Of a DNA stretch of 20,000 bases, positions 3,901 to 20,000 are shown in pieces. How positions within the stretch are numbered: the stretch's first letter is position 1; every line of letters starts with the position of its first letter. Under the pieces are notes generated by a model. The model searched no databases, was not told where the DNA came from, and saw only the letters and a list, made by a program, of their open reading frames with translations. The translations under genes were made by a program, and so were the position numbers. The stretch is from an uncultured virus (IMG/VR IMGVR_UViG_3300012346_000469) (lineage: Duplodnaviria; Heunggongvirae; Uroviricota; Caudoviricetes), in the IMG/VR virus record IMGVR_UViG_3300012346_000469. One strand, written 5' to 3'.

Positions 3901-6900
3901 TGGGCGCACTTCAATCTGCTGGTTTCAAGAAAATTCCAAGAGGTAACAATCGAGCGTACAAAGATGCGGACGGGAAAGAATACACAACGCTTGAGCGAGA
4001 TGGTGTTCGCGTTGTTGTGCGCTCTGCGACATCATTGCAAACAGATGATCTTGGCGGCGTTGATGTTTATCAGGGCGATCCAAATGAATGGACGATCCAA
4101 GCTCTGATCGTTGACAAAGACAAACGCAATCAAGGTTTGGCATCCCAGGCAATGCAGGACATTGTTGATGCCGCCGGCGAGTACGACATTGATTTGTACC
4201 TCGAGCCGACTGCAATTGAAGGCGGCAAGATGTCGAAAGACGAGCTTGCAAACTTATATTCAAAATTTGGCTTCAAGTACCAGTTCGGGACTCTTGGCGG
4301 AAAGTCCGTCATGTTCCGTGAAGCAAAAGGCGACGGCACAGAGTCTTTGCAGGCCGCCGAAAAAGGCCAGACCGGCTACAACATTGATCCCGAAGATCAA
4401 CGCATTGAGAAAGAGCTGACCGGCAAGACCATGCTGCAGGCTGCAGACTGGTCGGTGAAGAACGCTCCGAACGCTTTCATGCGTGTGATTGCGGAGAAGG
4501 TGCGCAATCGCCTGCGTGAGCTGGAGCGCCGCGGCGTCGAGTTTGAGTTCAAGGTCGAAGGCGGCAACATGCGCAGCCGCGATATGTTCAGCGGCCGTGG
4601 GATCACGAATTTCAAGTGGGATGAAGAGCAGTCCAAAATCAGCGTCAGGCTAAATGGCGCTGCTGTTATGGACAACCAAAATGGCTATCCACCTGGTACG
4701 CGTTACGAGACATTGCTGCACGAGCTGCTGCACGTTGCAACTCGCGCCCAGTTCAAATTCCTGTCGCCAGACAGCAGCATGGGCAAGCAGCTGGTCGAGT
4801 TGTCTGATGCCATCATCAAGCGCTACAACGCTGACGCCAAGGCCGGCAAGCTGCCTCCCATCATGGAGCGGTATTGGAAAAACCGGAACAACGTACTGGA
4901 AGACCCAGACGAAATCCTGGCCTGGGGCCTGACCAACAAAGAAGTTCAGGAATATTTTGCCGACATCAAGGTGGGCGAGAAGTCCGCCATGACTCGACTG
5001 GTCGAACTGATCCGCGAAGTGCTGGGTCTGGGCAAGCCATACGAGTCGGCACTTGATCGCCTGGTCACGGTGTCTGAGTCCATGCTGGACACGAACGTTG
5101 GCGAGATCGAGTCGCTCATGAGCGTGCGCGGCAAGAAGCTGGGCAAAGCAAGGGCGCCCGTGCAGGAGAGTCTGTTCCAGCGTGAAAAGACATTGTCAAC
5201 AGGCAGCCCTGCATTCAAGCGTTGGTTCGGCAAGAGCAAGGCTGTTGACGCCAACGGCAAGCCTTTGGTGGTTTATCACGGCACGCAAAATGATTTCAGC
5301 GAGTTTAGTCTGCGCAATCGCCGCAAGGATCAGGGCAACAACCAGTTTGGCCCGGGCTACTACACAACCACAAGCGCAACCGGTGCTGGCGGCTATGCAA
5401 GCGGAGATGGCGCAAACATCTTGCCGCTGTACCTGAGCATTCAAAACCCGATTGATCTTGACACGCCAGCTTTTGGCCGATCAGTGATTGAGCGGTTGAT
5501 GCGTGCCTCGCCTGACTTTGACGACTCTTTGTCCAACTTTGGCGATGTCGGCTACGAAGGTGAGCGCAAGGTTTTGCGTGGCGCTATTGATGGCTTTTCT
5601 GGGTACGAAAATGCACTCCAGCAACTGAGCACACTCCAGCGAGACTTCTGGCCTGGCAATGAGGATGGATTCCTCAAGGCGGCCAAAGAAATTACAGGTC
5701 ATGATGGCGTTGAAGTTGACAACGGTGGGGCGGGCAAGTTTTTCATTGTCTGGACACCCGAGCAAATCAAATCCGCCACCGGAAACCGCGGCACCTACGA
5801 CCCCGCAGACCGCGACATTCGCCACCAGCGTGAAAACGTTTTGGGCGAGCCTGTCGCTGGCAACTGGACGCTGCAGCCCGACACCAAGCTGGACTTGAAA
5901 GACGGCTTCATCTACAAGATGCTCGACAAAAACATCGACATCAAGCGCGTCATTGAGGCCATCACCAAAGAGTCTGGCGAGCTGATGTCGCGCTGGAATC
6001 CGTACCTTCAGGAAGAGCTGTACCACGGCCGCACGGCCAAGGAAACTCAGGACTTCATGTCCAAAGAGATGAAGCCTTTGCTGCAAGACATGAAGCGGGA
6101 CAACATCACCATTGGTGAGTTTGAGCAGTACCTGCAGAACCGTCACGCCGAGGAATACAACAAGCAAGTCGCCAAGGTCAACAAGGGCAACGACGACATG
6201 CAAGACGGCGGGTCAGGCATCCTGACCGAAGACGCGCAGAAGTACCTGGCTGATTTGCCTGAAGACAAACGTTCCAAGTACGAGGCTTTGGCCAAACGCA
6301 TCGACTCCATCACCAAAGGCACGCGAGAAATCTTGGTCAAGAGCGGCATGGAAAGCCGTGAGACGATTAACGCATGGGAAGCAGCCTTCCCACACTACGT
6401 GCCGTTGCAGCGCGAGGACGGTGACTTCGAGTACACCACCAGCAGCACCGGCACCGGCCGCGGCTTTGATGTGCGTGGCGCCTTCAGCCGCCGGGCAATG
6501 GGCTCCAAGCGACAGGTCGTGGACATCATGGCCAACATCGCTTTGGCTCGTGAGCGCGCCATCGTTAAGGCTAATAAGAACAGAGTGGCCCAGGCCGTGT
6601 ATGGCCTCGCTGTGCAGAACGCAAACCCTGACTTTTGGCTGGCCGTCAACCCGTTGGCCGAGAAGGTGCCGCCGTTAGCGATCGAAGAGCTGCGCGACAT
6701 GGGCATCGACGAAGAGGCGATCGAGTTCTTGATGAAAGAGCCCCGCCAGCGCGCCGTTGATCCAAAGAAGGGCCAGGTTGTCAGCCGCATCAACACGATG
6801 CTGCGCAACAGCGACTACGTCCTGTCGATGCGCTTGAACGGCGAGAACCGCTACGTGTTTTTTAACCAGAGCGACCCACGCGCAAAGCGTGCCGTCACTG

Positions 6901-8592: not shown

Positions 8593-8859
8593 CTAATCGA
8601 TTGAATCTATAAGACGCTCAATTGTGACGTTGAGCGCATCCAATTCGTCCATCTTTTTGATGGCCCACATGCGCTTTTGGCCATGCCACCCGAGCACTGG
8701 GCCCTGGTGGCATGACTTGCACAGCGCAACGCACAGGTACTGCGATTCCTGCTTGATGTGGTGGGCATCACTGGGGCCGGCGGCGTCGCACACAGAGCAT
8801 GGCAGCATCTTCACCATGCTGATGTGCGCGCGCTGCTTGGCGGTCAGCTTGTTGTTCAC
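8593..8859 (-). CDS. Small Zn-binding HNH-like nuclease (Ref/DUF968-like)
   Basis: LPCSVC..SDAHHIK..LCKSCHQG motif pattern. Confidence 0.7.
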   Translation of the reverse strand: MNNKLTAKQRAHISMVKMLPCSVCDAAGPSDAHHIKQESQYLCVALCKSCHQGPVLGWHGQKRMWAIKKMDELDALNVTIERLIDSID

Positions 8860-9191
8860 TTGGACTTGCCCACGTCAAACCCAGCCTTGAGCCAGAACTT
8901 GCGCTCGCTGCGCAGCCGCTTGATTTCCGTGATGGCGGACAGCATCATGGATTTCAGCGGCGTGTCCTTTTGCTCGCGCATGTTGTCCTCAAGGATTGGA
9001 ACCACGTCAATGCCTGAATCAGCCCCTTGGCGGGCTGCCCATGCCATGGTCTTGTCGATGGCCTCCTTGGCCGCTGTGGCGCGCTCCTGAAGGCCTTCGT
9101 ACTGCTTGTGCAGCAACTGCTTCTCGATCGCCTTCAGCTGCACCTCTGCGCGCATCATGTGCGTGCTCCAGTCGTCCAGTTCAAAACTCAT
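8856..9191 (-). CDS. Hypothetical phage protein
   Basis: ATGA overlaps with both neighbours. Helical composition. Confidence 0.7.
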   Translation of the reverse strand: MSFELDDWSTHMMRAEVQLKAIEKQLLHKQYEGLQERATAAKEAIDKTMAWAARQGADSGIDVVPILEDNMREQKDTPLKSMMLSAITEIKRLRSERKFWLKAGFDVGKSK

Positions 9192-9412
9192 ACTTCCCTC
9201 GCTTTCAGCATGGCGTCTGCCAATTTGTAGGCATCCTCAGCGATGCGTTCAAAGCTGTGACCAGCCATCATCTGCATCGCCTTGGCCGCAAAGTAGTCGC
9301 GCAGGGTCATGCCCGATTGCTCACTTACTGCCCAATCAAGACCACTGCCGTTGTCGATGTATTCAAACGGTGCGCGTGGAAACGCTGGACCGCCTGTGTT
9401 TGTGTTGCTCAT
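9188..9412 (-). CDS. Conserved small phage protein (GGPAFP...GMTLRDYFAAKAMQ type)
   Basis: Recognisable widespread phage motif. ATGA coupling. Confidence 0.8.
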   Translation of the reverse strand: MSNTNTGGPAFPRAPFEYIDNGSGLDWAVSEQSGMTLRDYFAAKAMQMMAGHSFERIAEDAYKLADAMLKAREV

Positions 9413-9636
9413 ACTGCTCTCCGTTTCAACATTTCGTCCGCATGATCAAAGGCTGCCGCGTGAATGCTTGTGCGGCTGTCATCGTCAATGATGGCGCTCT
9501 TGTCGCCGTAATAGGCCAGCAGGCCCTGCAGCGCAAAGGCGGCAAAGAAGTCCTGCATCGTCAACTCCTGAATCGACACGGGGTCTTGCTTTGCAACCAA
9601 TGCCTCCAGGCCTTCACCCTTTGGTTTTCTTGCCAT
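9409..9636 (-). CDS. Small phage protein, paralog of the adjacent RDYFAA-type protein
   Basis: LTMQDFFAAFALQGLLA...AFDHADEMLKRR parallels TLRDYFAAKAMQ...AYKLADAMLKAR. Confidence 0.75.
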   Translation of the reverse strand: MARKPKGEGLEALVAKQDPVSIQELTMQDFFAAFALQGLLAYYGDKSAIIDDDSRTSIHAAAFDHADEMLKRRAV

Positions 9637-9937
9637 TGCTTTTCCCCTTCACGTTTTGAGAAACAATCATTGGTGACAGCTGCTCTTCAAGGTAGTACGC
9701 AAAGCTCTGGCCTTCGATGCCAAGCACCTTGCACCACTGATCGTCATGCAGTGCGGCGATCACGTCGCGGATGGCCTTGTTGTAGCCGCCGTTGAACTCG
9801 TCGTCGCCGTCAACGATGATGGTGATGGCATCGCGCACCAGGGCCGAGGCCTTGCGGTTGCCGGCAGCCTCTTTCAGCTTGTTGTAAACGTGCTCTGGCA
9901 GATGCACGCTGTACGGGATTAAGCGCTTAGTTTCCAT
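9614..9937 (-). CDS. Ribbon-helix-helix-like DNA-binding protein
   Basis: N-terminus YSVHLPEHVYNKLKEAAG..SALVRDAI fits the RHH/CopG pattern. Confidence 0.6.
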   Translation of the reverse strand: METKRLIPYSVHLPEHVYNKLKEAAGNRKASALVRDAITIIVDGDDEFNGGYNKAIRDVIAALHDDQWCKVLGIEGQSFAYYLEEQLSPMIVSQNVKGKSNGKKTKG

Positions 9938-10338
9938 GCTTGGAACTCCTGTTCAATGGCTGCAAGTTTTTTCGCAGCCTTGTGGTTTTCTTTCAGCTCC
10001 GTGCGCGACTGGATGTCCAGCTCTGTACGCAGCCATTCAACGACCGTTGACTCTTTCGCATCAAGCGTGTGGCCAACGGTCAGCAGGTATTCGGCAAACT
10101 GTTTGTCGCGGCAAAGAATGCCTGCTGTGCGGACTGCATCTCTGCTGTATTCCGCATCACGATTCATTGGTTTTTCTTCGCCGTTCAGTCTCACCATAAC
10201 TACCTGATACCTTGCACCGACAAAGTCACGCAGCAGTGACTCTGGGACTTCGTCGGGGTGTACGTTCAAAGTCAAGATGTAGCCAGTCTTGTCTTGCTTC
10301 ATGGCTATCTTGACCGCTTCGTATTGCAGCGTCTGCAT
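9919..10338 (-). CDS. Hypothetical phage protein
   Basis: 139-aa ORF starting 2 nt after the ssb stop, in the operon orientation. Confidence 0.75.
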   Translation of the reverse strand: MQTLQYEAVKIAMKQDKTGYILTLNVHPDEVPESLLRDFVGARYQVVMVRLNGEEKPMNRDAEYSRDAVRTAGILCRDKQFAEYLLTVGHTLDAKESTVVEWLRTELDIQSRTELKENHKAAKKLAAIEQEFQAWKLSA

Positions 10339-10340
10339 GA

Positions 10341-10733
10341 TCAGAAGGGGATGTCGTCATCCATGTCGTCAAACGATTCCTGCTGCTTCTTGGGCGCTGG
10401 GCGCTGGCGCTCTTGTTGAGGCTCAGCATCCTTGCGACCACCTTGCAACGCAACGTCGTTCACACGCACATCCATGGACTTGCGCTTGTTGCCTTCTTTG
10501 TCAGTCCACTCGCGCTCGGACACGGTGCCTGTCACAGTGACAGCCTGGCCTTTGACAAGGTACTGGGACAGCGACTCTGCGCGCTTGCCGTACAGGCCGC
10601 AGTTCCACCAGATGGTGCCTTTGTCGCGGCCCATTGAATCGGCAACAGAGAAGTTGCAGATGTAGTCGCCGCTGTTGAGCTGCTTGAGCTCAGAGTCTTT
10701 GCCGAGCGTACCGGCGATAGTGATCGTATTAAT
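10341..10733 (-). CDS. ssb: Single-stranded DNA-binding protein, probable non-canonical ATT start
   Basis: (I/M)NTITIAGTLGKDSELK..NFSVA..YLVKGQAVTVTG..WTDKEG..DDMDDDIPF. SD AAGGAG (10741-10746) lies 7 nt before ATT at 10733. No in-frame ATG/GTG/TTG between ATT and the upstream stop at 10794-10796. Confidence 0.9.
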   Translation of the reverse strand: MNTITIAGTLGKDSELKQLNSGDYICNFSVADSMGRDKGTIWWNCGLYGKRAESLSQYLVKGQAVTVTGTVSEREWTDKEGNKRKSMDVRVNDVALQGGRKDAEPQQERQRPAPKKQQESFDDMDDDIPF

Positions 10734-11358
10734 TTTGATTCTCCTTAAAAATTGAAAGTGCTTTTTCGAGCGGCCATTCTTGCAATCGTTGTATCAATGT
10801 TGAGACGCTGACGCCAAGATGCTTTGACCAGTCGGTTAAGCACATTTCCAGGCCGTTGAATTCCAAATATCTGTTGTTGCGTTTGTTTCTTGATTGCTTG
10901 TAATCGTTTGCCCATCTGCAATTTTCTTTGCAGTAATCTCCATGTACATCAATTCTGTCTATCGACTTCATTCCGTCTGGTTTTTTGCCCATGTCCTCAA
11001 AAAAAGCCTCAAAAGAATCCATCCACCTTTGGCACATTTTTATTCCACGACCTCCATAATCAGGAAAGTCTTTGTGGTTTGGGTTGGTGCATCTTGCTTT
11101 GATGTGCGCCCATGACCTGTACTCTGTGGTTTTTGTCATCCCATGCTTACGATTTGAGTTGCCCTCTTTTTTTATGCATCCGCAAGACTTCGAGCCCCCA
11201 GAACGCAAGGCATTTAGCCTTACGTCTGTTTGCACTCCGCAATCACAAATGCAAGCCCACAAAACATGTTTTCTGCTTGGGCAGATTTCATGTCCATTGG
11301 GGTAAAGGGCGGTGAGTTTGCCAAACTTCATTCCAGCGATGTTGAGTTTTGCTACCAT
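10729..11358 (-). CDS. HNH-type homing endonuclease-like protein
   Basis: KFGKLT..WACICDCG..SKSCGC..KHGM..YGGRGIKMCQRW..SIDRID..YCKENCRWA..RNKRNN. Visibly more AT-rich than its flanks. Confidence 0.85.
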   Translation of the reverse strand: MVAKLNIAGMKFGKLTALYPNGHEICPSRKHVLWACICDCGVQTDVRLNALRSGGSKSCGCIKKEGNSNRKHGMTKTTEYRSWAHIKARCTNPNHKDFPDYGGRGIKMCQRWMDSFEAFFEDMGKKPDGMKSIDRIDVHGDYCKENCRWANDYKQSRNKRNNRYLEFNGLEMCLTDWSKHLGVSVSTLIQRLQEWPLEKALSIFKENQN

Positions 11359-11389
11359 GATAGATTATGAACAAGTTGTTCATGCAATA

Positions 11390-11413
11390 TTAGCATACTG
11401 TGATGACGTTCAT
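11390..11413 (-). pseudogene. Orphaned original 5' end of ssb (MNVITVC*)
   Basis: ATGA-coupled to the erf stop with SD AAGGAG (11419-11424). MNVITV parallels INTITI at the present ssb start. Confidence 0.7.
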
Positions 11414-12123
11414 GCTTGCTCCTTGAATTTGTTGCGTGCTGTTTTGAATTCTTCCATGAGGGCGTCGTAAGCAGAGCTGCCTGGCTCCGCCTTCATGCGG
11501 TCGTAGATGTTTTTGTTGTTGCGGAAGATGGCCATCACATCAGCTTCTGTGGCGGCTTGCTCGAGCCCCAGCTTGGTTGCCTCCATTACGATGTCTGCCC
11601 AGTCCGTGAACTCACCTTCTGGCTCAATCGAAACCTTCAGCTGCCATGGTCCTTCTTTGCCTTCAATCTTGGCTGGCGGCTTGGCTGATGGCTCGGCCTG
11701 CTTCACTGGCTTGGATGCCGAACGCGGTGCTGGCTTGACTGGCTCTTCGTAACCGGTGCTGGCGTCCAGGATGTCGTGCTCAACAATCTCCATGGCGGTC
11801 ATCCACAGGTAGCGGCGCTGGTAGGTTTCCACGGCACCCAGGTTCTGGATGGGGTGCGTGCCCTTCAGGTTTGCTTCGGCCATGGGGCTGCTGATCGTGA
11901 TCATGGTGCCGTCTTCGACATCGGTGATGGCGAGCTCAGCATAGTCCTTTGTGTACGAGACAACGCCGCACAAACCGATCCGGTTGAAGATCGATTGGAT
12001 GACGGGCAGGAAGTCGCCCAGCTCGAAATAGCTGTAGCCTGCGAACTTGTTCAGTCCAGACTTTTTCAGCTGCGTGCCCTGCAATTCAATGCGGGCTTCC
12101 ATCAGTTTTTTATGAACGCTCAT
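11410..12123 (-). CDS. erf: ERF-family single-strand annealing recombinase
   Basis: KKSGLNKFAGYSYFELGDFLP..IQNLGAVETYQRRYLW..DILDA signature. Confidence 0.85.
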   Translation of the reverse strand: MSVHKKLMEARIELQGTQLKKSGLNKFAGYSYFELGDFLPVIQSIFNRIGLCGVVSYTKDYAELAITDVEDGTMITISSPMAEANLKGTHPIQNLGAVETYQRRYLWMTAMEIVEHDILDASTGYEEPVKPAPRSASKPVKQAEPSAKPPAKIEGKEGPWQLKVSIEPEGEFTDWADIVMEATKLGLEQAATEADVMAIFRNNKNIYDRMKAEPGSSAYDALMEEFKTARNKFKEQA

Positions 12124-12320
12124 TTTGCGATTCCTTCATCACGGTTCTTTTTGAAATCGTAGTCGTTACGATATTCGGTTGGGGGTGTCCAGCCATGCTT
12201 GCGCCATGTTTGCTGGACGTTGGAGCCTTTCTTGAAAACAAAAAAGGGATCATCCAATGATGGCACCTTTGGGGTCGACGCCACTTCAACGATTGCAAAT
12301 TTTGCTTCACGCTTTTTCAT
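12120..12320 (-). CDS. Hypothetical protein (66 aa)
   Basis: MKKREAK..QQTWRKHGWTPP. ATGA overlap with the erf start. Start chosen at ATG 12320. Confidence 0.6.
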   Translation of the reverse strand: MKKREAKFAIVEVASTPKVPSLDDPFFVFKKGSNVQQTWRKHGWTPPTEYRNDYDFKKNRDEGIAK

Positions 12321-12696
12321 CTGGCACCTCGTCAGTGATTCGTAAAACTTCAATTGTCTTGCCGTCTTTACCATGGCACGTTGTGTAGGTTTTCCTTCCC
12401 CAGACGGTGGAAAGATAGCTGCACACACCAGAGCGAATATCTTCCGCTTCGTAGTCACCAATTTTGACGATCTGCACAGAGCCAACAGCGGCCTTCAGGT
12501 CAATCTGCGAGCCGTAAAACTCACGCAGCTCGCCATACGGAAATCTGTTTGGAGCCCTGCGCTTTCTTTGCTTTGGAGTGACCACTTCAAGTTCTCCGTA
12601 TTCGTTGCCGTCTGGGTCGATGATCTTGAACTTGCAGCCAATGCCTTCAATGAATTTGATGGAGCGGGTCAACTCCTTCAGTTGAATTTCTTTCAT
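12307..12696 (-). CDS. Hypothetical protein (129 aa), putative sRNA target
   Basis: Strong SD in AAAGGAGAAACACC before ATG at 12696 (MKEIQLKEL...). Confidence 0.75.
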   Translation of the reverse strand: MKEIQLKELTRSIKFIEGIGCKFKIIDPDGNEYGELEVVTPKQRKRRAPNRFPYGELREFYGSQIDLKAAVGSVQIVKIGDYEAEDIRSGVCSYLSTVWGRKTYTTCHGKDGKTIEVLRITDEVPDEKA

Positions 12697-12713
12697 GGTG
12701 TTTCTCCTTTGGT

Positions 12714-12881
12714 TTAGAACCAACCGAACCAGATTCCGGTTCCGTGAATCCATGCGATTGGGAACACAATGGCTCCGGCAATCAAGAATCCCCACGAAGC
12801 CGTTTTCAGGCATACAACGATGTGCGTGATCCATGAAAAGATCACCCAGATGGCCAGGCCAATTGGAATTAAGCCGTTCAT
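12714..12881 (-). CDS. Small two-TM membrane protein (55 aa, not in ORF track)
   Basis: MNGLIPIGLAIWVIFSWITHIVVCLKTASWGFLIAGAIVFPIAWIHGTGIWFGWF. ATGA overlap with the upstream gene. Confidence 0.75.
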   Translation of the reverse strand: MNGLIPIGLAIWVIFSWITHIVVCLKTASWGFLIAGAIVFPIAWIHGTGIWFGWF

Positions 12882-13087
12882 ACTTCCATCTCCCCTTGGT
12901 TTGTTTCGCCATAGGTTTCCACCTTGGTGCCATTGCTCAGTGCTTCGACCAGATCATCTTGCGATGCGACCTTGACGCTGAATGCAGACTTGGCCACATG
13001 GGTGATGGCTTGTGATGCGACAGAGGCTTTTACGAGGCGGCTGCCTGTTGGGCCGTTGACGAGATAGATGCGTGTTGCTGTTGCCAT
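12878..13087 (-). CDS. Hypothetical protein (69 aa)
   Basis: MATATRIYLV..RLVKASVASQAITHVA..VASQDDLV. SD AAGGA upstream. Confidence 0.7.
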   Translation of the reverse strand: MATATRIYLVNGPTGSRLVKASVASQAITHVAKSAFSVKVASQDDLVEALSNGTKVETYGETNQGEMEV

Positions 13088-13097
13088 GATGATTTCC

Positions 13098-13901
13098 TTA
13101 TTTAACGTGGATGAAAGGGGTGACGCCACCGGCGTTGGTAGTCGGCAATTTGCCGTCCCATTTTTCGATGGCTTTGAGTTGGACGTAGTCGGAACCGCCT
13201 TGTGCAGAAATCGCTGAAGCACGCAGTCGAATGGCGTCGGCTTCACCTTGCGCTTCAACTCGTTTTCGATCGGCTTCTGCTCGGGCAAGCTCAACTTCTT
13301 TTTGCTTGGCTGAGATTTGAAAGTTTCGGTTTGCCGATTCCTTGATTGCCTGCTCAAGTGCTGGGTCGGTTACAAGGTTGCGGACGTTGGCGCTGCGAAC
13401 AAAGAACATACCCTTGCCAGCGGATTCATCGAGGTCGGCTTGCAAAGACTTCACGATGTCCGCAGAGATGCTCACGCGCTCGGTGTGTACGGTTTCAGAA
13501 CCATACTTGGCGACTGCGTTGTAAACGGCTTCACGGGCCTGGCGTGTGACGTAGCCATTGCCAATCCGCACACCGTCTTCGCCCTTGAACTCAACGGCAT
13601 CGCCTGGCCATTTGGTCATGATCTCTGGAGCCTTGGATGGATCGATTTGGTAAAAGATGTCCACGTCCAGGTCGGCCAGCGTGATCTTGTCTTTGGTCTG
13701 GGGCTTCATGTCATCAAGCGACAGGCGTAGCTCTTTGGCGGACACTTCGGTCACGCGCTTGAACAGGCTGAAGTACACGCCTGGCGGCATGGTTTCTTTT
13801 TTGACCTGGCCCAGTGTTGCCTCAACGCCGACGTTGCCGGTATCGATCTGGGTACATGCAGTCAACGATGCGACTGCAATTGCTGAAATGATTCTTTTCA
13901 T
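13098..13901 (-). CDS. SPFH/band-7 (prohibitin-like) lipoprotein
   Basis: Signal peptide with lipobox LTAC. IDTGNVGV..AEADRKRVEAQGEADA..AIEKWDGKLP is typical of phage SPFH proteins. Confidence 0.85.
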   Translation of the reverse strand: MKRIISAIAVASLTACTQIDTGNVGVEATLGQVKKETMPPGVYFSLFKRVTEVSAKELRLSLDDMKPQTKDKITLADLDVDIFYQIDPSKAPEIMTKWPGDAVEFKGEDGVRIGNGYVTRQAREAVYNAVAKYGSETVHTERVSISADIVKSLQADLDESAGKGMFFVRSANVRNLVTDPALEQAIKESANRNFQISAKQKEVELARAEADRKRVEAQGEADAIRLRASAISAQGGSDYVQLKAIEKWDGKLPTTNAGGVTPFIHVK

Positions 13902-13905
13902 GGTT

Positions 13906-14097
13906 TTACAAAAGTTGGGTTGATGGAACATTGGCGGCAACCACTACGAGTAGAAGCAAGATGCCGATGAAAAAGCCAATCCGGAAAGCGTGCTGTGTGA
14001 TGGACTTGATGGCCACCCTTCTTGCCTTTGGATCAGCCAAAGTCCAGACTGCGTAAACAGCCACGACTAAGACAACGAGTAAAAGCAAGTGCCTCAT
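13906..14097 (-). CDS. Small two-TM membrane protein (63 aa)
   Basis: Two hydrophobic segments separated by a basic loop. ATGA coupling. Confidence 0.7.
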   Translation of the reverse strand: MRHLLLLVVLVVAVYAVWTLADPKARRVAIKSITQHAFRIGFFIGILLLLVVVAANVPSTQLL

Positions 14098-14321
14098 GAC
14101 CAGGTGACAGCTTTTACTGCCCACATCTGGGCGGTCTGGGCTTCCGTGATTGCAATGCTCAGCATGCGCTTTGCTTCGGGTGATGCGTCGCTCAACAGGC
14201 GGTGCTCATTCAGAAGGTCAACGACTTCAGCAAACTTGCGCTTGATGAGGTCAACGTCTTCGCGTCCGCCTGGGTTAAAGCTAACGCCGCAGGCCTTTTG
14301 GCCAAATGTCAATTCATTCAT
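14094..14321 (-). CDS. Acb2/Tad1-like helical-hairpin protein (candidate nucleotide-signal sponge)
   Basis: SFNPGG..IKRKFAEVVDLL..RMLSIAITEAQTAQMWAVKAVT resembles the Acb2/Tad1 hairpin pattern. Confidence 0.6.
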   Translation of the reverse strand: MNELTFGQKACGVSFNPGGREDVDLIKRKFAEVVDLLNEHRLLSDASPEAKRMLSIAITEAQTAQMWAVKAVTWS

Positions 14322-15217
14322 GGTGCTTCCTTGGTTTTGAGATAGGCTTGGTATTGCGTGCAGAACGGTGCCACTTGGCAAAAGCCAGAGCAGCGCGTCC
14401 GATCGCCTTCCCTTACCTCGATTGAAAAGCTCTCACCTTTCTTGGCCTTGGCCACAGATTCAGCAAGAGCAGCTTCGGCATTGGCGCGCACTTCATGCAC
14501 GCTCTTTGCGCGAACGTTGCCGTCTTTTTTGACGGCGTAATAGGTTGGCTTTTCCCACATCTCTTCAGCCGTGCATTCAGGCATTTCACCGCCGGCATGG
14601 ACTGCGAAGTAGGCATCGTTGTGCAGCGACAGACGGCCCTCGACGTAGGCCTGACGCTTCTCAAAAGTCCACAGAGGGATGTCAATGACATGGATGGGTG
14701 ACTTGGGGTAGCCTTCCTTTGTCAGTGCATCACGGCGCGACCAGTCACGCACGATGGCCACGATGTTCAAAGCCTTGATCGGCACGCCTTTTTTACGCTC
14801 TATCAGCCAGGCGTAGACGTTCAGCTGGTTGTGCCAATCATCTTTCTCGTTCATCACGGCCCATGCGCCAGTGACTTTGTAATCGCTGATGATCACGCCG
14901 TCTTCATAGACCTCTTGCAGGTCGATGGCGCCGCTGATGCGCCAGCCGTGGTGCTCGGTAAAGATGCGCTCTTCAACGATGTGGTGATCGCTCTTGCCGT
15001 GCTGCAAGATTTCGTGGACGGCCGAGCCAAACAGTGACCAGACCATCTCGCTTGCGTCTTGCTCGAGCTCATCCCAGTGCTTGGCCTTGAGCTGCACGAT
15101 GCGCGGGCTGTTCAGGATTTCCGTGGCAGAAATCTGTGAGTCGCCTTTGGTGTAGGTGGGCCGCTTGATCACGTTGATGAACGTGTCGGGCAGCTCAAAC
15201 TTGTTGGTCAGCTTCAC
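14318..15217 (-). CDS. PD-(D/E)XK (Cas4-like) phage exonuclease
   Basis: GTG start with SD AAGGAG. GSAVHEIL, ISGAIDL, SDYKVT, QLNVY and C-terminal RCSGFCQVAPFC motifs. Confidence 0.85.
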   Translation of the reverse strand: MKLTNKFELPDTFINVIKRPTYTKGDSQISATEILNSPRIVQLKAKHWDELEQDASEMVWSLFGSAVHEILQHGKSDHHIVEERIFTEHHGWRISGAIDLQEVYEDGVIISDYKVTGAWAVMNEKDDWHNQLNVYAWLIERKKGVPIKALNIVAIVRDWSRRDALTKEGYPKSPIHVIDIPLWTFEKRQAYVEGRLSLHNDAYFAVHAGGEMPECTAEEMWEKPTYYAVKKDGNVRAKSVHEVRANAEAALAESVAKAKKGESFSIEVREGDRTRCSGFCQVAPFCTQYQAYLKTKEAP

Positions 15218-15465
15218 TGCATCTTCTCCTTGCTCAGGTGAATCGTGTGCTTGTGAATCTCCATGAAGATACCGATGATGTCGTGCATCGTCATGTCGGC
15301 AGACAGGCCAAGCGTTGACAAAATGATGCAAGCCGCTGCAATGGCCTCGCGCGGGTTTCCATCTGAATCTTCCAAAATTCCGGCGCCGTGTTTATTGGCG
15401 ATCTGGGCAGCATGCTTTAGGATGAGCATGCCCGCTTCGCGCTGCTCTGGGGTGAGTTCTTTCAT
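15214..15465 (-). CDS. Hypothetical protein, first gene of the leftward operon
   Basis: GTGA overlap with the exonuclease gene. Follows the predicted promoter. Confidence 0.7.
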   Translation of the reverse strand: MKELTPEQREAGMLILKHAAQIANKHGAGILEDSDGNPREAIAAACIILSTLGLSADMTMHDIIGIFMEIHKHTIHLSKEKMQ

Positions 15466-15495
15466 GTGTTGATCCTAACTGTTGGGTGGGACTCT

Positions 15496-15537
15496 AATGT
15501 AACAGGTATAAACCAACAACACAACACCTGCTACGAT
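15496..15537. promoter_or_regulatory. Divergent sigma70-like promoters
   Basis: Leftward TTGTGT (15524-15519), 17 nt, TACATT (15501-15496) with extended TG. Rightward extended -10 TGcTACGAT (15529-15537). CAGGT/ACCTG inverted repeat overlaps both. Confidence 0.5.
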
Positions 15538-15570
15538 GAATGCAATATATTTTTTTCATAGGTGTTTTCC

Positions 15571-15855
15571 ATGAGAAGAGCAGCCAGGCGTGACACCAAC
15601 GAGCCAGAGATCATCAAGGCCATGCGCGACATGGGCGCCTACGTCAAGGTCATCAACGACGAGGGCTTGTTCGACCTGCTGGTGAGCTTCCGCGGGGAGA
15701 CGCTGCTGATCGAGGTCAAGGACGGGGCCAAGCCGCCATCGGCCAGACGGCTCACGGACGCAGAGCAGAAGTTCCACGACGAATGGCCAGGATCAGACCT
15801 GTACATCGTCAACAGTGTTGAAGAGGCTGTTGCTCTGTTGAAAACTTGCGGTTAA
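15571..15855 (+). CDS. VRR-NUC-like PD-(D/E)XK nuclease, possible resolvase
   Basis: RRAARRDTNEPEI..DLLV..LIEVKDG..LTDAEQKFH..W. Confidence 0.8.
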   Translation: MRRAARRDTNEPEIIKAMRDMGAYVKVINDEGLFDLLVSFRGETLLIEVKDGAKPPSARRLTDAEQKFHDEWPGSDLYIVNSVEEAVALLKTCG

Positions 15856-15858
15856 GAT
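15830..15858 (+). promoter_or_regulatory. sigma70-like promoter for the candidate sRNA
   Basis: TTGCTC (15830-15835), 17 nt, TAAGAT (15853-15858). Confidence 0.6.
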
Positions 15859-15863
15859 TGAGG

Positions 15864-15949
15864 CGCGGCATAGGGGTATGTCGTGTTTCATGAGTGTTTC
15901 TCCTTTAGGTTGGGATTGCCCCTCTGCTTAGCGGCAGAGGGGTTTTCTT
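15864..15949 (+). ncRNA. Candidate trans-acting anti-RBS small RNA (~85 nt)
   Basis: 5' hairpin 15864-15885, unpaired anti-SD/anti-AUG seed 15886-15911, intrinsic terminator. Seed is complementary to the mRNA at 12691-12714. Confidence 0.65.
15919..15949 (+). terminator. Rho-independent terminator
   Basis: CCCCTCTGC-ttagcg-GCAGAGGGG followed by TTTTCTT. Confidence 0.8.
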
Positions 15950-15956
15950 CTGAAGG

Positions 15957-16201
15957 GCCAACACGCATGAGCCTTTCTGCGGAGCTCTCAAGCCGGCTCT
16001 TGGGCGCAGTGATGCAGACGGGTTCAGTCGTGTTGGCAAGAGTCGGCCGAAAGGCAAACAGTTTTGGTCTGTTGACTCACAGTGCGAGTCGAGAAGTCAA
16101 CCGGCATCTGGGGCCGTTCGCACACCAGAACCATCACTTTGCCCAGGGGTCGTTCCCCGCAGCGCGAAGTCCTGGAGTGGCCAGGTGGGCAAAGTGATGG
16201 T
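15957..16201 (+). ncRNA. Cluster of structured RNA elements upstream of the tRNAs
   Basis: Long hairpin 15957-16037, three-way junction 16040-16078, and a 16-bp perfect stem (16130-16145/16186-16201) enclosing two hairpins. Confidence 0.5.
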
Positions 16202-16254
16202 CAAGCGCAACACTTGCGTCGGACTGGGGGTTCTCGGTCGCCATCAATCATTGT

Positions 16255-16333
16255 CGCGGGATAGAGGAGCCCAGCCGTCCTCGCCAGTTTCATACGCTGG
16301 AGATCGCAGGTGCGAATCCTGCTCCCGCAACCA
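16255..16333 (+). tRNA. tRNA-fMet (CAT), atypical
   Basis: Acceptor CGCGGGA/TCCCGCA with C1:A72 mismatch, A11:U24 pair, loop TT-CAT-AC, encoded CCA. Confidence 0.85.
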
Positions 16334-16389
16334 ATTCATGTACAATCCGGCCCATCATGAAAACGTCTTTCCTTCCGCGACCGACCAAG

Positions 16390-16465
16390 CTGTGTGTAGC
16401 TCAGCTGGTAGAGCGCGCGCTTTGGGAGCGTGAGGTCGCAGGTTCGATCCCTGTCACACAGACCA
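16390..16465 (+). tRNA. tRNA-Pro (TGG)
   Basis: Acceptor CTGTGTG/CACACAG, loop TT-TGG-GA, GGTTCGATCC T-arm, CCA. Confidence 0.95.
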
Positions 16466-16495
16466 ATTTCACAACGACACGAAACTGATACCCAT

Positions 16496-16571
16496 TCTGG
16501 GGTAGCACAGTGGTAGTTGCATCTGGCTGTTAACCAGAATGTCGTTGGTTCGATCCCAACCCCCAGAGCCA
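16496..16571 (+). tRNA. tRNA-Asn (GTT)
   Basis: Acceptor TCTGGGG/CCCCAGA, anticodon arm TCTGG-CTGTTAA-CCAGA, G73, CCA. Confidence 0.95.
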
Positions 16572-16576
16572 AATAA

Positions 16577-16653
16577 GCCCTCGTAGCTCAGTCGGTAGAG
16601 CACCTGTTTTGTACTCAGGAGGCCGGGCGTTCGATTCGACCCCGAGGGCACCA
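16577..16653 (+). tRNA. tRNA-Thr (TGT), atypical
   Basis: Acceptor GCCCTCG/CGAGGGC, loop TT-TGT-AC, U31.U39 mismatch, bulged A in the T-stem, CCA. Confidence 0.88.
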
Positions 16654-16662
16654 AAATATCTC

Positions 16663-16692
16663 TTGCACGTCCACCAACGTCTTTGCTATACT
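16663..16692 (+). promoter_or_regulatory. sigma70-like promoter
   Basis: TTGCAC (16663-16668), 18 nt, TATACT (16687-16692) with extended TG. Confidence 0.7.
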
Positions 16693-16697
16693 GGCCT

Positions 16698-16823
16698 CGT
16701 TGCCGTAGGAAGCGACGAAAATTGAGGCCGTTTACACATGCGTTCCGCCTTACCTGATGACCAGTTGAAGAGTCATGAGGTAAGGTTCCTACCGGACGCA
16801 GTTGTAAGCGGCCTTTTTCATTT
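16698..16823 (+). ncRNA. C4/CI-like antisense or attenuator RNA
   Basis: Leader hairpin loop GTAGGAA (16705-16711) is complementary to the bulge TTCCTAC (16786-16792) of a long irregular stem 16725-16814 that ends in a T-run. Confidence 0.6.
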
Positions 16824-16835
16824 CTACGTCAGCTC

Positions 16836-17190
16836 TGCGCTGATCCTTTTGGTGATACGAACGTTCTTGTTCAGCGCGAGAGCCATAAGAACTATCGACG
16901 TGGCAAGCGCGGGTGGGGATAGCGCTGATTGTTGGGTAAACCGCCAGAACGGAACCAGGTCGAGAGATTGGGGTGATCCGGGGCAACGGCAGCAATCAGG
17001 TCGAGCTTGGTCAGTGCGCTAAGAAGGGGTCTCACAATGGGCCTAAATGTCTGACAGCTGCGGCGGAGCATTGAGAGATGACCGCAGCCAAAAAGCGACG
17101 GAGCGACCGATGGGCGATTCCAGCATTTTGATCTTCAGCCAACCTCGCGTTTTGTGAGCTAGGGGTGGGCTGTGTCCGATTGCTCTGTCA
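16836..17190 (+). ncRNA. Large multi-helix non-coding element
   Basis: Nested helices 16836-45/17009-18, 16925-34/16990-99, 17052-57/17185-90, 17057-63/17082-88, 17101-06/17180-85, 17136-40/17168-72. No credible ORF. Confidence 0.45.
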
Positions 17191-17224
17191 CTCGGTCCGG
17201 GCGATAACCAGTGTGGAGATGGTG

Positions 17225-17821
17225 ATGTCAGAGAAGATGGAAGCGAGTAGGGTGAAGAGTAGTGCGCTGCCTTGGTACATCACATCCAGGGTGTGTGCTG
17301 CGGAGAGGCAAGGGCTGAGCGAGATAGAGCAGGCCTGCCTGGCCTTAGAGATAGACGGCATGCCCTGCCCCATGGCCACTGATCCAGAGCAGTGGGTGCG
17401 CGAGAACTTCTCATACATCTGTTTCAAGTACCGCGAAAAATATCCGCGGAATGCCGTGGCCACCGGCAAAACAAAAACTCAAAAGAAGCGCAAAAAGCAT
17501 CGTGCTTTGGAGCGACGTCAATCTGTACCAAAACCAGTGGCGCAAAGGCCCATCAAGGTGGCTGGCGTCGATGTGGCATCAGATGCCTTCCTGTCCACGT
17601 TTGAGTGGCGCAAAGTGCGCATGGAGGCCCTAAAGAAGTATGGCCCAAGGTGCCAGTGCTGCGGCGCCACTCCGGCCAATGGTGCCGTGATGAACGTTGA
17701 CCACATAAAGCCGCGCAAAAAGTGGCCAAGCCTGGCGCTTGATGTCAACAATTTGCAAATCCTTTGCCACGATTGCAACCATGGCAAAGGCAATTGGGAT
17801 GAAACGGACTGGCGGGCGTAA
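17225..17821 (+). CDS. HNH endonuclease (McrA-like, Zn-binding) with N-terminal extension
   Basis: GGAG 6 nt before ATG 17225. EWRKVR..RCQCCG..VDHIKP..NLQILCHDCNHGKGN. Confidence 0.88.
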   Translation: MSEKMEASRVKSSALPWYITSRVCAAERQGLSEIEQACLALEIDGMPCPMATDPEQWVRENFSYICFKYREKYPRNAVATGKTKTQKKRKKHRALERRQSVPKPVAQRPIKVAGVDVASDAFLSTFEWRKVRMEALKKYGPRCQCCGATPANGAVMNVDHIKPRKKWPSLALDVNNLQILCHDCNHGKGNWDETDWRA

Positions 17822-17846
17822 AAAAACCCGCCACTGAGGACGGGTT
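17819..17846 (-). terminator. Rho-independent terminator for the convergent (-) operon
   Basis: Minus strand reads AACCCG-tcctcagtgg-CGGGTTTTTTT. Confidence 0.7.
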
Positions 17847-17850
17847 CGGT

Positions 17851-18021
17851 TTACTCGGGGTCGTTCCAGATGTCCGGCGTCGCCCAGGCGAATAGGTGCT
17901 GCCACATGCTGATGCAGTCGCCACACTTCTCGTACATGAACTTGGCCAGCTCCAGTTGGTTTTTACGCTCCTGGAGCCACCACTCATGCGCCGTGTATGG
18001 TGGGTACTTGCGCATGCTCAT
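17851..18021 (-). CDS. Hypothetical protein (56 aa, not in ORF track)
   Basis: MSMRKYPPYTAHEWWLQERKNQLELAKFMYEKCGDCISMWQHLFAWATPDIWNDPE. Stops just before the terminator. Confidence 0.6.
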   Translation of the reverse strand: MSMRKYPPYTAHEWWLQERKNQLELAKFMYEKCGDCISMWQHLFAWATPDIWNDPE

Positions 18022-18445
18022 CGCCCAGCTTCAATACGGCGTAGCCTGTTAACGTCTTCATCAGCATCAGTCCGTGGAAGCTCAGGTCTTCTGCTATTTG
18101 CTTCCATTCCGGCTCCCGAGCAGGTGCTGCGAGTTCTGCTTTCAACAAAGCGATGGTCATGGCTTGGTCTGCCGCAATTGCTTCCCAGTCCTCCACTGGC
18201 GAACTGGAAGTTTTTTCTTGGTTCGCCAATTGCTCCCTTTTAAGTTCGCCATAGTTCCACACGGCTTCGCTCAGCCAGCCTTCTGTTTTGGTCAGCCTTG
18301 CTTCCAAGTCCTTTGCCGCTTCTTGAGCTTGGAACAACGCGGACTCGAGCGTGCCGATGCGCTTGTTAATCCAGTCGAGTTCGAGCTTGGTCCACACCCA
18401 TCCACCAACGAAGTCGGGATGATCTTCTGGTTTGATATTGCTCAT
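17984..18445 (-). CDS. Hypothetical phage protein, coiled-coil
   Basis: SD AAGGAG and ATGA coupling. Confidence 0.7.
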   Translation of the reverse strand: MSNIKPEDHPDFVGGWVWTKLELDWINKRIGTLESALFQAQEAAKDLEARLTKTEGWLSEAVWNYGELKREQLANQEKTSSSPVEDWEAIAADQAMTIALLKAELAAPAREPEWKQIAEDLSFHGLMLMKTLTGYAVLKLGDEHAQVPTIHGA

Positions 18446-19173
18446 GTGTTCTTCTCCTTGATTGCGGCCTCAATGGCACGGGCAAATGCCAAGGCCAAAC
18501 GCTCGTCTTGTGGTCGCAATGTTTGGTTCGTTGCCGTTATGTATGCCGTGTAAATCTCTCCGTTCGTCAGTGGCACGGCTGGCTGTTTTGCAGGTTCTGG
18601 GTATGCGTAGAGAGGCAATGCACGATGCTCGTTGGTAAAGTCTTCCGGGTTGTCGGTCACGCAGACAGACGTTCCATCAAGCGTGTAAACCATCCACGCC
18701 ACAGGATTTTGCTTCGCTTGCTCGGCCAGCAACTCCGTCCTCCCAGTGCAGTACCCATTTAGGTAGTTTGTCTTTTGCTTCTCAGCCGCATCAGTGGCAG
18801 CATCTCGACGGCCCTTCGCCATGCCGTCCATGTAGCCACGCTGGTATGCGGACTCGGACTGTTGCTGTGCGGGTGGGGTGGTGTCAAAATTGTTGCGCGG
18901 GTCAAGTCCGCCATCAGAAACGATGTCGCTGTATTGCGCCACCTTCTCCTGCATAGGTGCTGGTTTGTAGATGGCCTCAAGGGGGATCGGTTTGGCCATC
19001 AGTTTTTCGCCATCCCACCAGACTTTTGACACCTGTGTTCCGCCTGCTGGCTCATAGTCCAACCCCAACTCACGGGCATTCTCAGACATCTTGTTGAGGG
19101 CGCTTTCCACGGCCTGTTTGCGCATCTTGGACTCACGCTCGATGCGGTTGAACTCTTCGTCTTCGTCAGTCAT
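18442..19173 (-). CDS. Hypothetical mosaic phage protein (243 aa)
   Basis: Start ATG 19173 with SD GGAGG. Contains ENARELGLDYEP, PVAW..PLY and PLT..EI..FARAIEAA motifs common in phage accessory ORFs. Confidence 0.75.
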   Translation of the reverse strand: MTDEDEEFNRIERESKMRKQAVESALNKMSENARELGLDYEPAGGTQVSKVWWDGEKLMAKPIPLEAIYKPAPMQEKVAQYSDIVSDGGLDPRNNFDTTPPAQQQSESAYQRGYMDGMAKGRRDAATDAAEKQKTNYLNGYCTGRTELLAEQAKQNPVAWMVYTLDGTSVCVTDNPEDFTNEHRALPLYAYPEPAKQPAVPLTNGEIYTAYITATNQTLRPQDERLALAFARAIEAAIKEKNT

Positions 19174-19334
19174 TCGTCGTCCTCCATTTCGGTAATTTGA
19201 TCGTTCAAGATTTGCATCTTGGCAACTTCCATGCAGCCAATTGCAGTGGCTGTCAGCATGGACTCGCTGTACTTGTAGACCACTGCGATGATTTCGTCCA
19301 CAAGACCCTGGGCGATTGCTGCGTCGTATTTCAT
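19170..19334 (-). CDS. Hypothetical protein (54 aa, not in ORF track)
   Basis: MKYDAAIAQGLVDEIIAVVYKYSESMLTATAIGCMEVAKMQIL... with ATGA overlaps at both ends. Confidence 0.75.
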   Translation of the reverse strand: MKYDAAIAQGLVDEIIAVVYKYSESMLTATAIGCMEVAKMQILNDQITEMEDDE

Positions 19335-19576
19335 GCTTCATTCCTTTTGTTGATGCCGGCCAACAAGCCAGCGATGGTGTCAAACTCTTCGCCTGTGTCG
19401 AGCAACTTGAATGTCGCTTCACCGCTGCCCCACTCGCCGGTGCTGATCTTGCGTGGCGTGTAAACCTGCTTGGCAATCTTGTGCTCCTGGTTGACGTACT
19501 GGCGCAGGGCGTGATCCTCGGCGCTGTAGCCAAACGTGTATTGCAGTGGAATCTTTTGCAGGTCTTCCAGGGTCAT
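19331..19576 (-). CDS. Hypothetical protein
   Basis: SD GGAGGAG and ATGA overlaps at both ends. Confidence 0.75.
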   Translation of the reverse strand: MTLEDLQKIPLQYTFGYSAEDHALRQYVNQEHKIAKQVYTPRKISTGEWGSGEATFKLLDTGEEFDTIAGLLAGINKRNEA

Positions 19577-19728
19577 GGCTTCTCCTCCAAAACAATGCGC
19601 TCCAGCACACTCATGGAGCGCTGAATATCGTCAACAAGGTAATCTGGCAATCTGGTGGCCTGGCTGAACGCCCACGACTCCAGCGCGGACAGCAGCTTGA
19701 TGGCTTGCAGTGCTTCTTCTTTGCTCAT
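19573..19728 (-). CDS. Hypothetical protein (51 aa, not in ORF track)
   Basis: MSKEEALQAIKLLSALESWAFS..LPDYL. SD AAGGAG and ATGA overlaps. Confidence 0.75.
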   Translation of the reverse strand: MSKEEALQAIKLLSALESWAFSQATRLPDYLVDDIQRSMSVLERIVLEEKP

Positions 19729-20000
19729 GCTCTCGCTCCTTCAACGATGACCCATTGGGTCTTTGGTTTTTTGTAATGCGTGCCCCACTTCTGGCGATCT
19801 TTGGGGTGAGGGCAGTCGTCGGGCACAGGCACCGCAACCCACACCTTTTCAAACTGACCGCGCTTGCCGACCCGCCAACGGTCAACATACACATCCGGCA
19901 TGGCACGCAGCGCCGTCCGCACGTTGGACACATGCACGCCGGTGATCTCGGCAATCTCCGCTGGCGTCATGCCGCTTGGGCGTGAGCGCAGCAGTGTGCG
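19725..20000 (-). CDS. Winged-helix/HTH-like protein (5' truncated by window edge)
   Basis: RTLLRSRPSGMTPAEIAEITGVHVSNVRTALRAM. Frame is open to the right edge. Confidence 0.7.
   Translation of the reverse strand, partial: RTLLRSRPSGMTPAEIAEITGVHVSNVRTALRAMPDVYVDRWRVGKRGQFEKVWVAVPVPDDCPHPKDRQKWGTHYKKPKTQWVIVEGARA

Follow-up and report, generated by a model that had tools for sequence, protein, structure and literature searches.

A conserved candidate small RNA of tailed phages that mirrors ribosome-binding sites and is encoded next to a divergent, putatively early operon

The antisense RNAs sar of phage P22 and OOP of phage lambda each overlap a single target in cis. Most known phage small RNAs, as far as the accessible part of one compilation covers them, come from temperate enterobacterial phages and act on one or a few specific targets (PMC12197685). 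An architectural precedent for the element considered here, with a similar mode of working, is provided by the double-hairpin RNAs of Burkholderia (RF02278; ncS03, ncS05, ncS27 and ncS62), as presented in the available text of two reports (PMC5688073, PMC4603805). The Neisseria RNAs NmsRa and NmsRb (RF02877), the c4 antisense RNA of phages P1 and P7, the lambdoid pR' transcripts including StxS, and the antisense RNA aQ are further points of reference. A full-text literature search, covering few subscription papers and main texts rather than supplements, yielded no description of a phage RNA family like the one reported here; the 38 unassigned phage small RNAs in Table S1 of PMC12197685, a source available in part, may bear on its novelty.

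The window, i.e., the whole stretch of DNA analysed, comprises 20,000 nucleotides of the uncultured virus IMGVR_UViG_3300012346_000469 and represents part of a tailed phage genome, with a polyvalent protein gene, a leftward operon, a divergent nuclease gene, the element under study, a structured RNA, and tRNA genes:

918–8537, plus strand, gene of a polyvalent protein of 2,539 aa with GNAT, ART-PolyVal (ADP-ribosyltransferase) and LPD38 domains
8856–15465, minus strand, leftward operon with genes for an exonuclease, a Band 7 protein, Erf, HNH and SSB, and small genes
10729–11358 and 17165–17821, two HNH endonuclease genes
12307–12696, minus strand, gene of a charged, soluble 129-aa phage protein with an alpha/beta C-terminal domain, of no known family and sporadic in relatives
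12691–12714, minus strand, best pairing site of the window, from the Shine-Dalgarno sequence to codon 2 of the 129-aa gene
15214–15465, minus strand, 83-aa gene without a family assignment that opens the divergent leftward operon
15571–15855, plus strand, small PD-(D/E)XK-type nuclease gene, 94 aa (PHROG 93 endonuclease, E 2.8e-4)
15957–16044, plus strand, long conserved hairpin that adjoins the terminator of the element and contains a 2x2 internal loop; several structured RNAs, of which it is the first, precede the tRNAs
16255–16653, plus strand, cluster of tRNA-Met, -Pro, -Asn and -Thr genes downstream of the element on the same strand

The polyvalent protein probably enters the host together with the DNA. 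The leftward operon is presumed to be early because it consists of recombination genes and small genes with strong ribosome sites; database matches of its first gene were confined to unnamed phage clusters. The nuclease, which we take to be VRR-NUC-like, is encoded by a single copy per genome in all five related genomes. These five records (G001–G005; 60–66 kb, 93–100% complete) served as stand-ins in the target search, which in this phage itself covered the 20-kb window. One related record, of which 35 proteins were scanned, encodes portal, terminase, capsid, helicase and primase. Judged by terminase, the nearest cultured phages are DSL-LC04, HTVC027P/HTVC023P and Pag-Yong1 (45–56% identity); neither the nuclease gene nor the small RNA unit was found in the whole of DSL-LC04, in 23 of the 58 kb of HTVC027P, or in about 31 of the 65 kb of Pag-Yong1. 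A scan of genome contigs for a host returned two short bin contigs, which we do not trust as host evidence.

The near-identical phage L001 has neither the HNH gene at 10729–11358 nor the Band 7 gene region, and several genes that lie right of the tRNAs are missing there as well; the HNH genes, the Band 7 region and the genes right of the tRNAs are mobile inserts. In the closest relatives, L085 and L165, a 527-aa gene and a single-strand annealing gene of another kind substitute for parts of the leftward operon, which is a mosaic of cassettes sharing similar ribosome sites. The Band 7 gene start (13901, minus strand) has an A/C-rich leader without a Shine-Dalgarno match, in contrast to its neighbours. 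In the divergent promoter region (15466–15570) and its counterparts in relatives, CAGGTA and TACCTG motifs recur across distant clades and are candidates for an operator or early-promoter element.

The element itself occupies the end of the nuclease gene and the adjoining intergenic sequence:

15830–15835, plus strand, −35 box TTGCTC, within the last codons of the nuclease gene
15853–15858, plus strand, −10 box TAAGAT after a 17-nt spacer, its TAA being the stop codon of the ORF 15571–15855
15864–15885, plus strand, 5' hairpin of 9–11 bp, optional across the family
15886–15911, plus strand, seed, consisting of an anti-AUG (CAU), a spacer complement, an anti-Shine-Dalgarno stretch (UCUCCU) and a leader complement
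15918–15950, plus strand, intrinsic terminator with a stem at 15918–15943, followed by an interrupted U tract (four U, then C)

Promoter, hairpin, seed and terminator had all been named in a preliminary description of this DNA, and each is present where it was placed. The promoter agrees with the −35 consensus at three of six positions and is absent from the listing of a consensus promoter scan; since the match is too weak for such a scan, the promoter call rests on conservation. The terminator ranks first among 25 terminator-like sites of the window, and the element folds with z = −4.5, none of 200 shuffled sequences folding equally well. An RNA of about 85–88 nt is predicted. Whether its seed would be unpaired, as had been claimed, depends on the start site: with a start at 15862–15864 the unpaired probability is 0.72–0.75, whereas a start at 15865–15868 would leave the seed about half-buried in a rival fold (0.46–0.55).

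Related loci were collected with the nuclease and the exonuclease as anchors. Both genes occur in 164 of 243 loci plus the window; 128 of these are distinct, 11 end too soon, and the remaining 117 were examined. A parser recognized the unit of promoter, seed and terminator in 100 of them, and among its 17 misses 13 show the unit by eye, two lack it, and two are unclear or cut. TAnnnT is found at the nuclease stop in 92 and TTG at the −35 place in 81 of the 117 relatives, and the full promoter signature (TAnnnT at the stop and TTG 17 nt upstream) in 74, as compared to two of 1,212 control ORF stops. The −35 codon ends in T, a synonymous choice, in 74 of 78 cases, versus 269 of 998 (27%) CTN or GTN codons elsewhere in the nuclease gene. 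Between promoter and terminator, 91 of the 100 parsed elements contain CTCC or TTCCT; CAT, the AUG complement, precedes this anti-Shine-Dalgarno core in 41 and GTTGC occurs in 38. A 5' hairpin is predicted, at −4 kcal/mol or lower, for 48 elements, and alignments of the homologous hairpin of relative L164 reveal changes from A-U to G-C and from G-U to G-C. The anti-Shine-Dalgarno core has a mean unpaired probability of 0.58, exceeding 0.5 in 51 of 93 elements, and predicted RNA lengths in the relatives range from 49 to 99 nt.

A bidirectional terminator can be rejected, because all 100 terminators are one-way and none has an A run before its stem; they comprise 62 hairpins distinct by sequence, all facing the same way. 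The preliminary description had allowed that the seed might be the relic of a duplicated gene start. The minus-strand frame that begins at the seed AUG spans 2–74 aa in shifting frames (41 cases), and with neither frame nor length conserved, both a relic gene start and a minus-strand small peptide are rejected. The seeds also contain more G and T, and less A and C, than antisense sequences of 519 real starts do. A conserved promoter, an anti-Shine-Dalgarno core and a one-way terminator occur together without a conserved minus-strand frame; this combination is the signature of a genuine small RNA gene in which the anti-Shine-Dalgarno core is what stays constant.

The U tract of the terminator varies with what lies downstream. 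A U run of at least 7 is present in only two of the 38 elements that precede a promoterless hairpin RNA, in 17 of the 19 that precede a promoter-like site, and in 33 of the 43 remaining elements. In all seven clades containing both kinds, the U run is shorter before the hairpin, and near-identical small RNAs (L002/L005 versus L004, and L122 versus L125/L201) differ in having an interrupted or a full U tract, the cassette downstream changing with it. This correlation suggests deliberate partial read-through into the cluster of structured RNAs and tRNAs, and the terminator at 15918–15950 is probably leaky. To call the small RNA gene self-contained, as had been done, is therefore too strong: its terminator appears to be built for leakage into the downstream RNA genes.

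The hairpin at 15957–16044, which recurs in 38 of the 100 related elements, has conserved arms (ACACGCATG on the left), and its 2x2 internal loop encloses inserts of widely varying length and sequence. It gave no Rfam hit; it is likely a read-through product and may represent either a stem for processing or an RNA family not yet described. Further structured non-coding stretches lie at 16045–16254 ahead of the tRNAs (z = −5.95 for the whole region), and structured stretches downstream of the long hairpin were also seen in L003, L022–L030, L118 and L200. Many relatives carry a motif GGGTTAGCG in the structured stretches before their tRNAs; it has no Rfam hit and presumably resembles target sequences of the C4 system.

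Given these observations, the element might be nothing but a leader, i.e., a promoter with an attenuating terminator for the structured RNAs and tRNAs, comparable to lambda pR'/tR', with the seed an idle leftover or a copy of a gene start homogenised by recombination. The dependence of the U tract on downstream content fits such a role, as do the shortest versions of less than 55 nt and the fact that seed and leftward starts are direct DNA repeats whose fit declines with distance. We nevertheless consider it quite unlikely that the element is a leader only. Where a separate promoter follows (19 cases), the unit is kept and its terminator is stronger; retention of the short RNA with a tight terminator where the cluster has its own promoter indicates that it is not merely a leader. 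Moreover, a leader would not account for the anti-Shine-Dalgarno core in 91 of 100 elements, or for the wobble bias on the transcribed strand (see below) without a conserved frame on the opposite one.

In the window, the seed equals 12691–12714 except for two extra As, a direct DNA repeat that had been noticed correctly in the preliminary description. Its duplex with this site is the best on both strands, the element itself aside (−33.8, as against −27.2 for the next). Net of opening energy, the start at 12696 reaches −23.4 kcal/mol among the 21 gene starts of the window, followed by 15465 (−12.4 kcal/mol), 19576 (−11.3 kcal/mol) and 12881 (−11.0 kcal/mol); the first leftward gene start, 15465, is thus the second-best site. 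Among 543 starts, that at 12696 ranks first for its own seed, and this seed ranks first among 67 for the 12696 start. In the close relative L164, whose contig does not extend far enough to reveal the gene, the seed is identical to the 24-base site, and in L083 CATGAT replaces CATGGT in both the seed and the start of the 129-aa homologue. On the strength of this complementarity, pairing with the 12696 start is probably real in this isolate.

This stand-out site with its reciprocal first ranks, together with the seeds of L164 and L083, also speaks for the function originally proposed, a dedicated repressor or a type I antitoxin-like guard of gene 12307–12696. However, the gene is sporadic, being present in one of the five near-complete relatives, all of which contain the small RNA; 18 of 244 sequences match it, four of them from this phage or a near twin, and 15 homologues are found in the protein collection. 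Its start is generic and strong as a ribosome site: the viral collection contains the exact 22-mer eight times, in each case where an ORF begins, and four unrelated proteins follow. Seeds of other phages pair with this start almost equally well (L011, −36.0; L010, −33.7; own seed, −36.7), and the L010 genome lacks the 129-aa gene. Among 36,381 pairs, 27 reach −33 or better, and a single one of these, the 12696 pair, is cognate, roughly the number expected from the share of own starts (623) in the 36,381 pairs.

Type I toxins are short, mostly hydrophobic peptides of under about 60 aa. The 129-aa product is a charged, soluble alpha/beta protein without a toxin-like fold match. It belongs to no PHROG or Pfam family, its matches in the Atlas and BFVD are unnamed phage proteins only, and a comparison with the PDB, in which residues 1–50 were barely covered, gave no match at E 0.001; the best VIA-align Z score, 5.9 over 66 residues with an rmsd of 2.7, lies in the range of a common arrangement. 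A type I toxin-antitoxin pair is not supported on either count, the nature of the protein and the separate travel of RNA (5/5 near-complete genomes) and gene (1/5). Pairing with the 12696 start is, by these comparisons, not what the RNA family is kept for, and a dedicated partnership with this gene, whether as repressor or as guard, appears very unlikely.

Fit between seeds and gene starts was examined across the family by pairing 67 seeds with 543 leftward starts, excluding loci with less than 3.5 kb upstream or fewer than six starts; starts were called by a simple script requiring a Shine-Dalgarno-like motif, and the duplex energies take no account of Hfq or kinetics. With one representative for each of 23 clades, own starts pair better by 2.3 kcal/mol than row and column effects predict, and still by 1.95 kcal/mol when this window is left out (p at its floor of 0.0025). 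No own-seed excess was found at Shine-Dalgarno-like sites inside genes (p 0.14–0.86; 23 clades). The fit is strongest at the first leftward gene (−3.6, p 0.003), p values at other gene ranks being 0.03–0.91, and it is significant at p < 0.05 in two of 13 orthologue groups. Transitions between seed and first-gene start were wobble-compatible in 45 and incompatible in 19 cases (p 0.0008; 23 clades). G/U-rich seeds and changes that keep G-U pairs are expected of an RNA selected for loose pairing with multiple sites, not of a drifting DNA copy.

As to the covariation of seed and target that had been suggested as a check, a preferential fit is seen at the first leftward gene across 23 clades, but not genome-wide, where 21 foreign seeds do as well as the own one (ranks 5–22 of 22 in five genomes). 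Without a genome-wide preference the fit is local, and recombination between seeds and starts, rather than selection for pairing, could explain it; local recombination with neighbouring starts could yield at least part of the fit. Leftward starts beat rightward ones in only three of five genomes, and many foreign seeds (8–12 of 22) likewise favour leftward starts; the leftward preference is partly a generic effect. For many relatives, even the strongest duplex with the phage's own genome amounts to a modest −15 to −25 kcal/mol, opening costs not yet deducted. What survives of the preliminary description is its central proposal, a trans-acting small RNA directed at ribosome-binding sites, perhaps the timing switch envisaged there, which is supported by the promoter, anti-Shine-Dalgarno core and terminator conserved in about 100 relatives and by the fit of seeds to own starts.

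The same anti-Shine-Dalgarno core could be directed at the host. As a phage counterpart of the "toxic" double-hairpin RNAs of Betaproteobacteria, the RNA might damp host mRNAs with strong ribosome sites, such as those for transport, metabolism or defence, and its fit to phage starts would then follow from the tuning of both phage and RNA to one and the same host ribosome. In support, overexpression of a double-hairpin RNA slows growth, and 55–80% of predicted sites are located at starts, according to the available part of the report (PMC5688073). Besides, the 22-mer targeted by the seed is a generic start common to unrelated phages, own genes are not preferred genome-wide, and RF02278 is the best Rfam match for both the window (23.8 bits) and L010 (25.3 bits). 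With the gathering cut-off at 50, however, the score of the window remains below half of it, and tuning to the host alone does not predict an excess fit centred on the adjacent first gene. A general agent of this kind, which would be compatible with the reading we prefer, seems rather unlikely as the main function. Still less is to be said for a protein decoy, in which the U-rich single strand and the terminator tail would sequester Hfq, ribosomal protein S1 or a host small RNA. The U-rich seed and the tail of U would suit such a function, and VpdS of phage VP882, as outlined in the accessible part of PMC12197685, competes with host small RNAs for Hfq; the fixed UCC core, the AUG complement and the fit to own starts are, on the other hand, left unexplained, and we regard a decoy as highly improbable.

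We favour, with a probability of roughly 0.6, the interpretation that the element encodes a multi-target small RNA against ribosome sites which damps the divergent early operon, and whose leaky terminator feeds the downstream RNA and tRNA genes. According to this model, the host sigma-70 RNA polymerase would start the RNA at the promoter in the end of the nuclease gene and would halt at the intrinsic terminator, both steps being suggested by conservation. The single-stranded, U/G-rich seed would mirror a strong translation start, i.e., leader, Shine-Dalgarno sequence, spacer and AUG, and could pair with several starts by G-U wobble, possibly with the help of Hfq. Upon accumulation, the RNA would cover ribosome sites of the leftward operon (exonuclease, Erf, SSB and many small genes), above all that of the 5' gene; the strongest coverage in this isolate would fall on gene 12307–12696, and early protein synthesis would be turned down. 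Where a promoterless cluster of structured RNAs and tRNAs lies downstream, the shortened U tract would allow some transcripts to read through, as the repeated correlation implies.

A bolder version, which we put forward tentatively and consider possible at best, is that of a widespread tailed-phage family in which a fixed, consensus anti-Shine-Dalgarno/anti-AUG small RNA acts as a global governor of translation. Through RNA alone it would silence the strongly translated early operon, and perhaps strong host mRNAs too; it would co-evolve with the first-gene start of that operon and serve at the same time as leader of an RNA/tRNA operon, with read-through tuned by U-tract length. A conserved, multi-target RNA against ribosome sites would in any case give a large group of uncultured tailed phages of 60–70 kb a means of timing early shut-off, or of capturing host ribosomes, by RNA only. 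With less than 90 nt and its own promoter and terminator, the element is amenable to synthesis and to reporter assays without phage culture, and about 100 natural variants constitute ready-made swaps of seed and target.

At the gathering level, a search against Rfam retrieved only tRNAs. The RF02278 RNAs and the phage element share an unpaired, CU-rich reverse complement of the ribosome-binding site; the bit scores given above and a different layout nevertheless place the element outside this family. RF02278 RNAs consist of two hairpins, the second an intrinsic terminator, whereas the 100 parsed phage RNAs all have the terminator and 48 of them the 5' hairpin; the RF02278 model starts at the core, leaving its first hairpin unaligned, while the phage 5' hairpin precedes the CU core. 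RF02278 RNAs are chromosomal, with 3–5 copies per genome, in contrast to the phage RNA with its one fixed locus: no second copy was detected in five related genomes with a search pattern that also missed the known element in three of the five. In further contrast, the phage seed adds an AUG complement and follows the phage's own early starts, and the promoter overlaps a gene end. NmsRa and NmsRb resemble the element in their exposed CU-rich anti-ribosome-site stretches and in multi-target repression, but differ in being a tandem chromosomal pair with two CU stretches and TCA-cycle gene targets, as far as the available text describes them (PMC5688073); the RF02877 match of 18.6 bits, on a UUUCUCC core and the terminator, falls short of the cut-off of 52.

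Among phage RNAs, c4 of P1 and P7 likewise targets phage genes in trans, close to their ribosome-binding sites; according to the accessible part of PMC12197685, however, it pairs via specific loops with ant mRNA and sets immunity, whereas the seed of the phage element is a generic mirror of Shine-Dalgarno sequence and AUG. Identity with c4 was rejected, no C4 row appearing at E up to 10 for the element or at E up to 5 for positions 12000–20000 of the window. The c4 target is an antirepressor/icd operon of a temperate phage; the putative targets of the element have no family, and the 35 scanned proteins of the related genome G002, which represent part of its genes, include no antirepressor or integrase. 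StxS and lambda pR'-tR' share with the element a short RNA from a phage promoter, an immediate terminator that gates downstream transcription, and a role as small RNA, but late genes are opened there by Q antitermination (PMC7547250, available in part), whereas here the length of the U tract seems to set read-through. Lambdoid pR'/tR' RNAs (6S, StxS) lie between a Q antiterminator gene and late lysis or structural genes; the element is none of these, having a nuclease-like gene upstream and structured RNAs and tRNAs downstream; in G002, the terminase is encoded about 15 kb further on. P22 sar, lambda OOP and aQ are, like the proposed RNA, phage antisense RNAs that set timing; as summarized in the accessible text, aQ overlaps its single target in cis, whereas the phage element overlaps no target start (PMC12197685). 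With its own promoter and terminator and without a conserved reading frame, the element conforms by conservation to the broad kind of anti-ribosome-site small RNAs, and comparative sequence evidence thus points to a conserved, hitherto undescribed phage small RNA family that is like the known anti-ribosome-binding-site RNAs in kind.
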